Shown here: positions 46,371 through 51,043 of the stretch, in pieces
How positions within the stretch are numbered: the first letter of the stretch is position 1
Layout: every line of letters begins with the position of its first letter
NCBI GenBank assembly: GCA_965207735.1
Contig: OZ242296.1
Span: forward strand, 1,920,001-1,984,000
DNA from: Candidatus Versatilivorator sp.
Lineage (GTDB): Bacteria; Acidobacteriota; Terriglobia; Versatilivoradales; Versatilivoraceae
Direction: 5' to 3'
DNA length: 64,000 bases
Notes under the pieces: model-generated
Databases searched by the model: none
The model's input: the letters and a program-made list of their open reading frames with translations, nothing else
What the model was told of the DNA's origin: nothing
Position numbers and translations under genes: made by a program

Positions 46371-47963
46371 ATGGTCGAACAAAGAAGAACGAAATCTAAC
46401 ATCAATCCAGGTTCTGACGAGACGACTTGGTTTTGTGTTCGGCGAAATGGCGTCGCCAAGCACCGCGGATGGATCAATGAGGTTCCGCTTGATGATCTGC
46501 CACGGCATGTAGGCGCGCGGCGCGGGGATGTCGTCGAGGTCTGCGTCGGCCACGAATTCCGTCCCGTTGAACCGGGTCGGTTTTCCAAGGTGTTTTGCGA
46601 GCGGACCCGCGGCCTTGTGGGAATGGAGATCGCATTTGACGGCGAGGTTTACCGCGCCGCACCAACATGGATGCTCGCGACCAACCGGAGGTTCCAGCGT
46701 GTGCTGGATCGGTTTCTAAAAAAGCACGACGCAACCGCTGCCGAGTTCACCGCCTACGGCAGCCTGCAGGCTTTTTCGGCGCGGCAGTTTCTGCTATCCC
46801 ACGGCGACGAAGGTAGCGTGACCGAACTGTTTCGCGGTGCGCCGCTGGTTTCGCCGGCACCATCCGCGGGTGAAGATCGCGCTGCCGATCTGGCTCGAGG
46901 CATAGAGCAGTGGATGCGCGTTAATCTCTCGCCTGACGGCGCGCTGCCCTACAAATACTGGCCGAGCCGGGGGGTGGATTCGCCGGCGGACAACGCCATT
47001 CGTCGCTTCTTGGCTTCATTGTCTCTCGCCCGACTGGGGGAACTCCGTCACGACGCCGCGATCCGCGAGGCGGCTCGCCGCAACCTACGCTTCAATTTAA
47101 GGCGCTATTTCCGCAATATCGGTGAAGGCCGGGGGGCCATTGTCGAACCCACCGGGGCCAAGCTGGGCGCCGCCGCCATCGCCGCATTGGCCATCCTGGA
47201 GAGCCCGGCGTCGAGTGAGTTTCTCCCCGAATTGCACATGTTGACGGCCGGCGTCAATTCGCTCGCAGACAAGGACCGAGGGTTCCGAACGTTTTACTTT
47301 CCACCTGAGCGCGACGGTGACAACTGGAATTTCTATTCCGGTGAAGCGCTCTTGTTCTGGGCCGAGGCCACCCGGCGAGGAACGAGATCGGCACCGACGT
47401 TGGAACGTTGCGCGGCAACCTTCGCCTGTTGCCGCAATCGGCACTACCGAGCCAGAAACCCCGCTTTCATTCCGTGGCACACGCAAGCATGTGCGTCCTT
47501 ATATAAACAGACGGGACGGAGCGAGTTTGCCGACTTTGCACTCGAAGCCAACGACTGGCTTCTGTCCATGCAGCAGTGGGACCGTTGGCCGGGGCTGCCA
47601 CCGGATCTTTGGGGCCGCTTCTACGATCCATTGCGACCCGAGTTCGGCCCACCGCACGCGGCTTCTACCGGGGCGTATCTTGAGGGACTCGCAGATGCCA
47701 TGACGTTGGCCCGCGAGATCGGCGATCAAGCCCGCACGGCCGTCTACGAACGCGCGATTGCGCGTGGATTGCGGTCCCTGCGGCAACTGCAGTTCCGCGG
47801 TCCGCACGACGCCTTCTACCTTTCGAGACGGGAGCGCGTGATCGGGGCACTCCGGACCGAGGCCTACGACAACGCGGTTCGTATCGACTCGGCTTCACAC
47901 GCGCTGGCCGCGGCCGTCAAGGTACTGGAGCAAGGACTTCAGTCAACGGGCGGAAGCACGTAG
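46371..47963 (+). CDS. uncharacterised enzyme with a predicted (alpha/alpha)6 toroid C-terminal domain
   Basis: Motifs YKYWP..DNAIR, KLGAAA, FYSGEAL, FIPWH, YLEGL, VRIDSASH recall six-hairpin/AMMECR1-fused hypothetical proteins; start uncertain. Confidence 0.6.
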   Translation: MVEQRRTKSNINPGSDETTWFCVRRNGVAKHRGWINEVPLDDLPRHVGARRGDVVEVCVGHEFRPVEPGRFSKVFCERTRGLVGMEIAFDGEVYRAAPTWMLATNRRFQRVLDRFLKKHDATAAEFTAYGSLQAFSARQFLLSHGDEGSVTELFRGAPLVSPAPSAGEDRAADLARGIEQWMRVNLSPDGALPYKYWPSRGVDSPADNAIRRFLASLSLARLGELRHDAAIREAARRNLRFNLRRYFRNIGEGRGAIVEPTGAKLGAAAIAALAILESPASSEFLPELHMLTAGVNSLADKDRGFRTFYFPPERDGDNWNFYSGEALLFWAEATRRGTRSAPTLERCAATFACCRNRHYRARNPAFIPWHTQACASLYKQTGRSEFADFALEANDWLLSMQQWDRWPGLPPDLWGRFYDPLRPEFGPPHAASTGAYLEGLADAMTLAREIGDQARTAVYERAIARGLRSLRQLQFRGPHDAFYLSRRERVIGALRTEAYDNAVRIDSASHALAAAVKVLEQGLQSTGGST

Positions 47964-48592
47964 TATCCGCGACCGGGCGGGGGCAAAACGTCGAAAATCA
48001 GATGCACACGGGGTTCATCGGAGGTATTGCGGGCCTCGTGCCCGGCTTTGTTGTTGAACACCCACAACTCACCCTCCCGCATCACTACGGATTCACCCCC
48101 CGCGGTCAGTGGGCTGCCTTCCGGACTCTTTATTGTGAGGTGGAATCGATCGCGGATGCGGTAGTAAGCCCCGGCGTCAACGTGCGGGCGAACCCACCCA
48201 TGTGGCTGCAGCGCAACCAGAGTGGCCCGCCCGAGCTCGCCGCCATGAAGGTCGGCGATCCATTGACAGAACGCCAACGCGCATGGAAACCTGGTAGAGA
48301 TTCGCGTGACCCGACTCGCGTGAACATCGTTGGCGTTGCGCACCCCGGGTGGTAGGGGTTTCTTGGCGACGCGCAGGAAGATGTTCTGGGTGTCGCGCTG
48401 GCACCGGACCTTGCGTTGGCGACTCGTGTCGACCAGCCACATCTCCGGTCTCCCGGCAAGCTCCGAGCAAATTGGCGCGACATCAATGCCCTCCGCGATT
48501 TTTCTAAAAGGCGAACCATTCGAGAGGGTTGTCGGATCTGGCGTTACACTTTCGTAGCCGGCCCACTGGGCTGCCGTCGTCGACGCACCCAT
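47939..48592 (-). CDS. aspartyl/asparaginyl beta-hydroxylase family Fe(II)/2OG oxygenase
   Basis: VRPHVDAGAYY..RFHL, GELWVFNNKAGHEARN..RVHLIFD: HxD..H triad plus the 2OG-binding Arg. Confidence 0.85.
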   Translation of the reverse strand: MGASTTAAQWAGYESVTPDPTTLSNGSPFRKIAEGIDVAPICSELAGRPEMWLVDTSRQRKVRCQRDTQNIFLRVAKKPLPPGVRNANDVHASRVTRISTRFPCALAFCQWIADLHGGELGRATLVALQPHGWVRPHVDAGAYYRIRDRFHLTIKSPEGSPLTAGGESVVMREGELWVFNNKAGHEARNTSDEPRVHLIFDVLPPPGRGYYVLPPVD

Positions 48593-48784
48593 GGTTTTCC
48601 TCCCTACATTCCTAGTACAGACACCGTTCAAAGAGTCCGTTTCGTTGGGCCCCAGTGGCAATTGACGCAGCAAGCAAAATCCCAGCCAACCTCTCGGGCC
48701 GCAGTGCTTAACTTGTACAAACCTCGGCATGCGTTGGACCGATCGGCCCTTCTGTCCCCGGCCGTTCCGACAATGGTTCCGTAG

Positions 48785-51043
48785 CTAGTCGTCGTCATCA
48801 TCATCGTCGTCGTCATCATCATCGTCGTCGTCATCGTCGTCGTCATCATCATCGTCGTCGTCGTCATCATCATCGCCGTCGCCGTCGCCGTCCCCGTCGC
48901 CATCCCCGTCACCATCGCCATCCCCGTCGCCATCACCGTCGCCATCGCCATCACCATCCCCGTCACCATCCCCGTCACCATCCCCGTCACCATCGCCATC
49001 ACCGTCCCCGTCACCATCCCCGTCGCCGTCACCATCGCCATCGCCGTCACCATCGCCATCGCCATCGCCGTCACCATCGCCATCGCCGTCACCATCGCCG
49101 TCACCATCGCCGTCACCATCGCCGTCACCATCCCCGTCGCCGTCACCATCGCCATCGCCGTCACCATCCCCGTCACCATCGCCATCCCCGTCGCCGTCCC
49201 CGTCGCCATCACCATCGCCGTCACCATCGCCGTCCCCATCGCCGTCCCCGTCACCATCCCCGTCGCCATCACCGTCGCCATCACCGTCGCCGCCGTTGTT
49301 TCCACCACTCCTACCTCCTCCGGACGGGGGCTTGGGTGGCAGTACGGCCTCAGGTGGAGTCGGCGGGGGGGGCGGTGGGGGGGGAGTGGGCGCACGCTCG
49401 GAGCTTTCCGAAATCACCTCCGGCAATGTCAATACGGTGCTGTTTGCGACATCCACTTCCAAGGCCACGGCGGTAAACAATCCCTCTCCCGCCATGGCGC
49501 AGTGTACCAACCCCAGGAACTCCGAGGTGTCGGTCATGGTGAAGGCGTCTTGGATGGACCAGGATGTCTGCCCGTTGGCCAACAGAGGAACCGGAATGGA
49601 ATCGAGCAGTACGCCCTCGTTCATCAAGTCGCACCGCAGCAGCACCGGACTCGCTTCCAGGTTATGGAGCGCGATGCCGGTGGTGGCGCCTCCTTTCCGG
49701 CGGCGTACCGGGAAGAGTGTGTTGTTAACGGGTAACCCGGCGTCTACCCAGGCCACTCCGAAGTCGGGGTGCTCGAAGCCGAGCATCGCGCCGATCCGAC
49801 CCTCCGAAACCACCCTGGCCGATCCCGTCACCAACTCCCCTCGGCCGTGAGTCGAGATCACGATGACTCCCAGAGGCTCCATCTCCGTCTGAACCGTAAG
49901 AGCGCCGTCCTCCCTGATCTCCAGACCGCCCGCGATGTCCACCAACCCATCAGGGGCAATCGGACTCCCTTGCGGGTCGTAGAAATAGATAGCCGGAAGG
50001 CTCGGAGGGACGGGCGCGTGAAAGGAAGTGAGGGGAGGGCCGCTCGGCCGTGTCTCCGTGTTCAGGAAGACCAAGTGGGTGATCCAATCCCCGTTGGCGA
50101 TATGAGGGAAATCCAGAATAGTCTGGCCGAGAAAATCTCCTGTATGGTCCAAGGGCACCACAGACAACGTGTTGAAGATGCGCTGACCGGGATCAATCTC
50201 CACGGCGATTGCGCTGAACCGACCCTCATTTGGCGCGCTACAGCGCACCGATCCCAGAAAGTCCGAGGTGTCGGTCGCGGTGAACACGTCTTCGATGAGC
50301 CACGAGGTCTGGCCGTTGGGCGCCAGGGGGATCTCCGCCTCTTCCAGCGTGGCGCCTCCGCTCATCAATTGACAATTCAGCGCAATCGCTTCCTCTCCCA
50401 GGTTGTGGAGGGCCGCCGCCGTGCTGACACCCTCCGCTTGGCGGCGCGCCAGAAAGAGTGCATCCTGAAGGGGTCGGCCGGCGGCAACCTCGGTGACCCC
50501 GACGTCCGGGATACTGTAGCGCACCAGTCCGCCAATGGGGCCGTTCGAGACCGCTCGCACCGATCCCGATACCAGCTTCCCTCGCCCGTGGGTTGTTATG
50601 GTGAGTTTGCCGAAGGGTTCCAATTCCGTCCGAACTGCCAGGCTGCCGTCCGCCCGGTTCTCCAGATCGCCCGTCACGTCCACTAACGACCCGGGGGCAA
50701 TGAGATAGCCCCCCCGATCGTAAAAGTAGACTGCGGGCCGAATCGGATAGTCGGCCACATTCACCAGGACCAGATCGGAAGTGGTGCCGGTCCCGTTGGC
50801 GAAATGTGTGAATTCCAGAGTGTGCTCGTCCTGAGTGGCTGCGGTCCCTCCGGAGGGGGCGCCAACAGCGGCGAACACGACCAGGAACCGGGCAAACGCA
50901 TGGAGCCCTACCCGGCGCAATGGCCGTGAAGGGGAAGGCCGGGCTCTTGTCCTCGCCTCGAACCTGAGGGTCCCGGACAAAACCCTGAACAACGCGATCG
51001 GGGCTGTGTCAATCCGTATTCCCAAGGATTCTCGTCGAATCAT
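48785..51043 (-). CDS. probable secreted protein: two tandem ~230-aa beta-rich domains, Pro-rich linker, C-terminal (GD)70-D28 tail
   Basis: Internal duplication ([41 protein letters not shown]), [13 protein letters not shown], acidic tract at 48788-49291; exact start uncertain. Confidence 0.8.
48788..49291 (-). repeat. coding low-complexity tract (Gly-Asp)70 followed by Asp28
   Basis: Counted from frame arithmetic: 168 codons, 98 of them Asp; mixed GGC/GGT/GGG and GAC/GAT codons. Confidence 0.92.

Follow-up and report, generated by a model that had tools for sequence, protein, structure and literature searches.

Does a protein that ends in a long run of Gly-Asp (GD) dipeptides, encoded beside an oxygenase and a toroid-fold protein, form one tailoring system with these two enzymes, and if so, what would they do to the repeat? 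The question is raised by a locus in a 64,000-nucleotide stretch of Candidatus Versatilivorator sp. (Acidobacteriota; contig OZ242296.1, positions 1,920,001 to 1,984,000), here called the window. The locus encodes a carrier protein with a C-terminal GD tag, a PF05118-family Fe(II)/2-oxoglutarate (2OG) oxygenase, hereafter the hydroxylase, and, convergently, a protein that joins an AMMECR1-like domain to an (alpha/alpha)6 barrel, hereafter the barrel. Our comparisons show that the three genes form one mobile unit and that barrel and hydroxylase co-diverge and fuse. The cassette is a real tailoring system that has apparently not been described. Because both enzymes accompany repeats of this kind in several phyla of bacteria, the GD repeat is probably a portable tag that is chemically reworked by its enzymes into a tailored acidic polymer.

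The last 168 residues of the carrier, a tail with 98 Asp already picked out in the initial annotation, are exactly (GD)70 followed by D28. The codons of the tract are mixed (GAC 50, GAT 48; GGC 32, GGT 23, GGG 15), and these mixed synonymous codons rule out a microsatellite or an assembly artefact. An antisense reading as (Ser-Pro)n was likewise ruled out, since GAA and GAG are absent from the tract and the antisense frame has no start upstream of it; extended to relatives, this control found two GAG codons in 35 tracts examined, with one locus (L071) ambiguous. Against an artefact, too, independent runs span positions 46,421-48,780 without indels, a span that stops short of the GD tract. In the 5.26-Mb genome the carrier is the sole open reading frame (ORF) with at least 14 Asp per 40 residues, and its tract is the sole (GD)4-or-longer stretch in a six-frame reading. 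The initial annotation had described a probably secreted surface protein. Export is likely, given a hydrophobic N-terminal segment near residue 49; the surface location found no such support, as neither a later transmembrane segment nor a lipobox or sorting motif was seen in the carrier. The carrier has no Pfam match, and the look-alikes of its duplicated domain in the ESM Atlas are unnamed Acidobacteriota clusters, the nearest named cluster being DUF5719 at 0.94.

The hydroxylase starts 192 bp past the stop codon of the carrier, with a GGAGG ribosome site before its ATG, and its ORF overlaps that of the convergent barrel by 25 bp, an arrangement that had been read correctly from the start. 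A longer hydroxylase reading from 48730 was rejected, the GGAGG site lying before the start at 48592. In all six congeners whose site was compared, dinB directly abuts the ferritin-family gene, and the barrel gene was found in none of 13 congeners. The G+C content at third codon positions (GC3) is 0.68-0.73 in the cassette against 0.77-0.87 in ten host-like flanking genes, a set from which an inserted sulfatase gene (0.615) was excluded. The neighbouring feoAB and ferritin genes were considered as members of the cassette and ruled out, since congeners carry them without it. A scan for promoters and terminators gave signals not above chance. In a seventh congener, G705, a 202-bp hydroxylase relic (L192, G705:C578:73-274) lies beside dinB and the barrel is missing; to judge from the sequence, this is a decayed cassette at the same site.

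Table 1. Features of the GD-tag cassette, with positions in the window
Feature	Position	Strand	Basis
Insert with exactly three genes, between dinB and ferritin-family gene	46232..51271		Empty-site comparison, GC3
Carrier of 752 aa with a hydrophobic N-terminal segment, a pair of related domains, a Pro/Gly linker and the GD tag	48785..51043	-	
(Gly-Asp)70 tag, predicted substrate	48872..49291	-	Codon mixing, antisense control
C-terminal run of 28 Asp, which varies or is missing in relatives	48788..48871	-	
Duplicated acidobacterial domain of ~230 aa, two copies, 46% identical; DUF5719-like as a lead only	49415..50818	-	
217-aa PF05118-family Fe(II)/2OG oxygenase, H137-x-D139...H185 + R195; predicted peptidyl-Asp beta-hydroxylase	47939..48592	-	
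530-aa AMMECR1-like + (alpha/alpha)6-barrel protein, no signal peptide; predicted core tailoring enzyme	46371..47963	+	
N-terminal AMMECR1-like (RAGNYA) domain	46410..46850	+	AlphaFold2 (AF2), predicted local distance difference test (pLDDT) 93; Foldseek; consensus
(alpha/alpha)6 barrel, residues ~159-527	46845..47951	+	AF2, VIA-align

Recurrence of GD ORFs beside homologous enzymes, which had been proposed as a check on the initial annotation, is what we found, and hydroxylase, barrel and GD repeat occur together much more often than chance would allow. A scan of species-representative genomes for the barrel gave 54 close loci in 52 assemblies (Acidobacteriota 25, Pseudomonadota 25, Gemmatimonadota 2, Binatota 1, Chloroflexota 1). 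The hydroxylase is present in 52 of these loci (interrupted in L048) and an ORF with (GD)5 or longer in 50, mostly within 2 kb. Of the four GD-less loci, two (L028 and L054) lack the hydroxylase and have a broken barrel, a third (L051) is on a contig of 3.6 kb, and the last, L029, is a true exception. In a control, we screened 301 genomes from the phylum of the window separately for barrel, hydroxylase and (GD)8. A close barrel was found in five, the hydroxylase in the same five, and (GD)8 in six, namely these five, each within about 2 kb of the enzymes, and G015, where it is a near-pure hexamer run. The five positives include G000 and the others probably overlap the 54-locus set, so that the value of the control lies in its 295 negatives. 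Distant barrels were found in nine of the 301 genomes, and the nine with distant barrels only have neither hydroxylase nor (GD)8; a further 400 genomes of the phylum of G301 yielded one distant barrel only. Besides the trio, no gene recurs throughout the 54 close loci. Sixteen loci, mostly proteobacterial (L005, L011, L012, L014-L022, L024, L037, L042, L052), share a small membrane protein, about 180 aa long and possibly a regulator. A bacterioferritin-like gene, named by eye, lies near the cassette in six (L007, L009, L013, L033, L048, L053), a weak hint of an iron link.

Across 51 loci the identities of barrel and hydroxylase correlate (Spearman 0.80, 0/500 permutations), a value inflated by kinship. 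Among 33 long hydroxylase proteins, 23 are fusions with the barrel, 16 of them barrel-first and seven barrel-last, and PF05118 is carried by 7 of 120 distant barrels among the matches listed. The tag is drawn into fusions as well: in nine Thermoanaerobaculia loci (L032, L034-L036, L038-L041, L046) a lipoprotein signal, a GD tract and the hydroxylase lie in one frame with no internal ribosome site, probably as the result of one event. In P0264-P0266 and P0268 the hydroxylase is fused instead to phosphoribosyltransferase- or propeller-like domains or to an HlyC-type acyltransferase. Barrel identity between phyla reaches 84%, which suggests that the cassette spread recently and is of strong benefit in a single habitat, probably that of sponge microbiomes; most of the metagenome-assembled lineages that carry the cassette are, we assume, sponge symbionts. 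Pieces of the locus were found, at high identity, in one run that is labelled sponge metagenome. In a FastTree tree, used descriptively only, L056 and L058 have long branches.

More distant barrels change the weight given to the two enzymes. A broad barrel alignment had 244 metagenome matches, of which we took the best 80, with 33-52% identity to the window protein. A GD ORF is present in 29 of these loci, in 19 of 45 clusters at 70% identity, and in nine of the 13 loci whose flanks reach 4 kb or more in each direction. The hydroxylase is present in eight of the 80, seven of them also with GD. A simple hydropathy rule assigns a signal or lipoprotein N-terminus to 39 of these 80 barrels, and in the flanking DNA available for the signal-bearing barrels there is no hydroxylase (0/39), with GD in 13. 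By these counts the barrel is the constant core partner of the GD repeat and the hydroxylase an add-on, present only with barrels that lack a signal peptide. The initial annotation had made the tail the hydroxylase's substrate and given the toroid enzyme a secondary part; the linkage stands and the emphasis does not.

Another arrangement lies on a Rhizobium lusitanum plasmid (L056:2576-12643, NZ_CP050304). Here a barrel 35% identical to the window protein accompanies a 73-aa precursor that has a (GD)8 core and a leader of the double-glycine type. Its neighbours are a radical S-adenosylmethionine protein, HlyD, a peptidase-containing ATP-binding cassette (ABC) transporter (PCAT), an HxD protein and the oxygenase RS01105, whose families, PF13640/PF13661, are among the HHpred matches of the oxygenase SmaO discussed below. 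By its gene content this is a cluster of the type that makes peptides synthesised by the ribosome and modified after translation (RiPPs).

Elsewhere the GD carriers include lipoproteins, RTX proteins, a lectin, a subtilase, a PEP-CTERM protein, a ShlB-partnered protein (two-partner-secretion type) and a double-glycine-leader peptide. A simple hydropathy rule finds a hydrophobic segment in 52 of the 62 complete carriers, and the tag can lie inside the protein. The carriers are unrelated, interchangeable exported proteins, and the system can do without both the carrier domain and the D28 end. Substitutions within GD tracts are very rare, with eight seen. In L116:11999-13844 a GD carrier adjoins a stand-alone gene for PqqD, a RiPP recognition protein, and a 279-aa ORF. 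The Pfam model PF22807 (TrAA12-like) matches pure GD repeats, sometimes above cut-off, and GD-tag proteins can be misannotated; its matches on our carriers come from the repeat itself and were disregarded. NCBIfam matches of the carrier to ClfA, ClfB, SdrC and SdrD cover the repeat region only and fall far below cut-off.

The hydroxylase matches PF05118 with 65.4 bits (E=7e-18; cut-off 22.6). Across 64 homologs, H137, D139, H185 and R195 are at least 97% conserved, as are the basic residues R58, R66, R74, R122, R147, R149 and K182. From knowledge of the PF05118 family we take H137, D139 and H185 to be the Fe ligands and R195 the 2OG-binding Arg. Action on a lipid, in the manner of LpxO, had been named in the initial annotation as a refuting outcome; it is unsupported, and identity with LpxO or OlsC was ruled out by NCBIfam equivalog scores of 17.9 against 500 and 14.5 against 450. 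A related hydroxylase on a Sulfitobacter plasmid (L170:8992-13290, NZ_CP040754) lies with a TIGR02466 protein, DUF1611 and an ABC protein, and this locus is a different system.

The barrel protein has no Pfam or NCBIfam match, and PDB sequence searches with profiles of the barrel and the N-domain gave no match. Its AlphaFold2 model (pLDDT 79.5) bears out the toroid fold recognised at the outset, with VIA-align Z up to 26.4 against (alpha/alpha)6 barrels, among them GH76 6shm (root mean square deviation (rmsd) 2.9, 297 residues aligned) and the cellobiose 2-epimerase 4z4j (rmsd 3.2, 317 aligned). GH76, epimerases of the N-acylglucosamine 2-epimerase (AGE) type, GH88 and class II terpene cyclases are nearly tied. 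AGE and cellobiose 2-epimerases, GH76, GH88 and the terpene cyclases share with the cassette barrel the same (alpha/alpha)6 fold and conserved polar residues near the helix starts, but identity is 6-16%, none stands out, and the neighbours of the cassette barrel indicate a peptide substrate. Weak profile matches among members of the barrel alignment are to GH88 (4/60) and Prenyltrans (3/60). Near-invariant are Y194, N208, R211, K264, N320, Y322, E325, W369, H370, Q401, H429, R504, D506 and H510, of which five lie within motifs used for the scan and the others outside. The near-invariant polar residues are retained in the close, exported, Rhizobium and ligase-neighbour groups of barrels.

The N-domain alone is a duplicated RAGNYA fold, as in AMMECR1. 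Its best Foldseek matches are 1zq7 (E 5.8e-5), 1vaj (1.5e-4) and 1wsc, over a range of 6e-5 to 3e-3 and with template modelling scores of 0.5-0.6. AMMECR1 structures include 1WSC and PH0010, and an RGChG motif has been described for the family (PMC2034487). At the position of that motif the N-domain consensus has RxxG...W and no conserved Cys. Compared with AMMECR1 as that source presents it, the fold is alike, but the cassette protein lacks the Cys motif, is fused to a barrel and has no dioxygenase or MiaB-like context. The N-terminal domain is likely a substrate-binding domain.

What, then, would the enzymes do? On balance we favour the explanation that the tag of an exported carrier is modified by the oxygenase, through a beta-hydroxyl, and by the barrel, through a cofactor-free rearrangement. 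That the GD tag is the substrate of the enzyme pair is very likely from the genomic association. By analogy it is likely, with somewhat less assurance, that the oxygenase makes beta-hydroxy-Asp on the tag before the carrier is exported. SmaO, an Fe/2OG oxygenase, beta-hydroxylates Asp in DGDG (erythro) and requires a following Gly (Kim et al., JACS 2025, PMC12186529), and for this reason we read the hydroxylase as an Asp beta-hydroxylase; its many conserved basic residues are consistent with this. The barrel would rearrange Asp-Gly units without cofactors. It would need neither the hydroxyl nor cytoplasmic cofactors, because its exported copies keep the same residues with no access to ATP or 2OG and no nearby hydroxylase. 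Asp-Gly favours succinimide formation and with it Asp-to-isoaspartate (isoAsp) chemistry. Our best guess, a tentative one that falls short of an even chance, is that the barrel is an isomerase, turning L-Asp to D-Asp or converting alpha linkages to beta (isoAsp) via a succinimide; we place it ahead of cleavage and transfer because exported copies keep the site and His-based epimerases are among the folds closest to it. What results would be a polyanion, resistant to proteases and located on or outside the envelope, that binds Ca or Fe; this role is a guess, and the mineral nucleation put forward in the initial annotation is conjectural.

Several observations weigh against this explanation. In L029 both enzymes are intact, yet 10 kb around them holds no GD; 51 of the best 80 distant loci have no GD in their flanks, many of these being short contigs, and the same holds for four of the 13 long-flank loci. 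The lipoprotein signal that precedes the oxygenase in the GD-hydroxylase fusions is a poor fit with cytoplasmic action. Hydrolases, epimerases and terpene cyclases match the barrel fold about equally well, so that the isomerase call is weak. Eight loci have a barrel beside Mur-ligase, CapA or ATP-grasp genes, seven of them without GD, and the barrel family would accordingly have other substrates. These loci (L129, with two different barrels, L058, L069, L071, L099, L105, L121 and L055) carry Mur ligase-CapA fusions or ATP-grasp(-acylphosphatase) genes, which we take to be polymer synthetases of the poly-gamma-glutamate or cyanophycin type; they are possibly a non-ribosomal counterpart. Such synthetases adjoin barrel homologs with the same residues, but the cassette has no ligase and its backbone is ribosomal. 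The ligase loci also offer a ground for supposing that the GD tract goes unmodified, as an acidic spacer or a tail that binds Ca, and that both enzymes act on a co-inherited small molecule or some other polymer. So do the best PDB sequence matches of the hydroxylase, which are weak and are enzymes acting on free proline (E 0.04 and 0.3), and the Sulfitobacter hydroxylase, 40% identical, with no GD or barrel within 9 kb; both also count against the favoured explanation. We consider this improbable, as the cassette has no other gene, the tag is itself fused to the hydroxylase, the Rhizobium tag is a leader-core precursor and the tracts tolerate so few substitutions.

Two further readings keep the tag as substrate and differ on what the barrel does to it. 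If the barrel were a lyase or depolymerase, severing the tag from its carrier or cutting it into oligomers, the product would be a released (Gly-Asp/Hya)n chelator, Hya being beta-hydroxy-Asp, and the carrier an export vehicle. The arbitrary choice of carriers and the occurrence of internal tags would fit, as would the exported barrel copies and the conserved set rich in Arg, Lys, His, Tyr and Asn, which resembles that of barrel hydrolases and lyases acting on anionic polymers (GH88/GH105 matches); capsule-polymer operons, too, often include a releasing enzyme. The window barrel has no signal peptide, however, so that a cut would precede export, and the Rhizobium cluster has a peptidase transporter that would itself take off the leader; cutting is in our view unlikely. 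Still less likely is a transferase or cross-linker, of the SdgA/B or GH76-transglycosylase kind, that joins sugars, amines or cell wall to Asp or hydroxy-Asp. GH76 is among the top fold matches, and SdgA/B glycosylate Ser-Asp repeats and shield them from proteases (PMC3794999), but no glycosyltransferase or donor-making gene is recurrent in the 54 close loci, and exported barrels have no nearby hydroxylase to supply an acceptor hydroxyl. Beyond the favoured sequence of hydroxylation and rearrangement lies a broader conjecture, which we hold to be rather doubtful as a whole: the AMMECR1-barrel family would be an undescribed class of cofactor-free peptide-backbone enzymes, Asp epimerases or alpha-to-beta isomerases, that edit ribosomal (Gly-Asp)n tags or polypeptides made by Mur or ATP-grasp enzymes, and where the hydroxylase is added, any exported protein could display a poly(Gly-beta-hydroxy-Asp) chelator with a non-natural backbone, one that marine symbionts unrelated to each other would have come to share as it spread.

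The nearest known chemistry is that of SmaO and SmaX, which act on the RiPP precursor SmaA (PMC12186529). SmaX is an HD-domain oxygenase that requires the hydroxylated substrate, and SmaO and SmaX are sometimes fused. Both systems share an Asp-Gly substrate motif, a second enzyme after the oxygenase and a pair that is sometimes fused, and SmaA resembles the Rhizobium precursor in its double-glycine leader and PCAT. The differences are substantial. The HHpred families of SmaO are Ofd1/2OG-FeII_Oxy, whereas the window oxygenase belongs to PF05118 and matches none of the ten families of Table S2. SmaX is an HD-domain protein (DUF6817, for which the rest of our genome was not searched) whereas the cassette partner is AMMECR1-like with an (alpha/alpha)6 barrel; SmaX needs a hydroxylated substrate whereas the barrel occurs without a nearby hydroxylase; and SmaA has two target Asp whereas the GD system has 5-140 repeats on large exported carriers. 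The terms 'Toroid', 'AMMECR1' and 'PF05118' do not occur in the two supplement files of that paper. A short RiPP precursor with cleavable leader and peptidase transporter was not seen in the window, where the carrier has 584 aa before the tag and the cassette no transporter; by sequence, these elements are present in the Rhizobium cluster.

The SdgA/SdgB system of staphylococcal adhesins (PMC3794999) is alike in having an exported protein, a long acidic dipeptide repeat and two dedicated enzymes. It differs in that the repeat is Ser-Asp, the enzymes are N-acetylglucosamine (GlcNAc) transferases and a single adhesin family is served, whereas the cassette has Gly-Asp and no glycosyltransferase. 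By analogy, protection from host proteases is a plausible purpose common to both. We found no description of a GD-tag/hydroxylase/barrel system in the literature, within a coverage that leaves out most subscription journals.

Two other features of the window lie outside the cassette. A 740-aa membrane sulfatase-domain gene (53040-55262, GC3 0.615) is a second insert, present at its site in none of six congeners compared. A repeat of about 85 bp (45531-45615, with similar text near 40400-40930) has many copies in G000 and congeners and resembles repetitive extragenic palindromic (REP) sequences or miniature inverted-repeat transposable elements (MITEs). RNA data amounted to a single 261-nt contig from a polyA library and were not counted as evidence.

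If the proposed tailoring is true, the system lies between RiPP chemistry and the tailoring of surface proteins, and it would provide a genetically portable tag with a two-enzyme kit for placing a tailored acidic polymer on proteins. The 73-aa Rhizobium precursor would be the simplest test system for the barrel reaction, directly testable in E. coli. The GD tag would also be the first testable substrate for a widespread enzyme family without known function, with 1150 matches among 8000 candidates.

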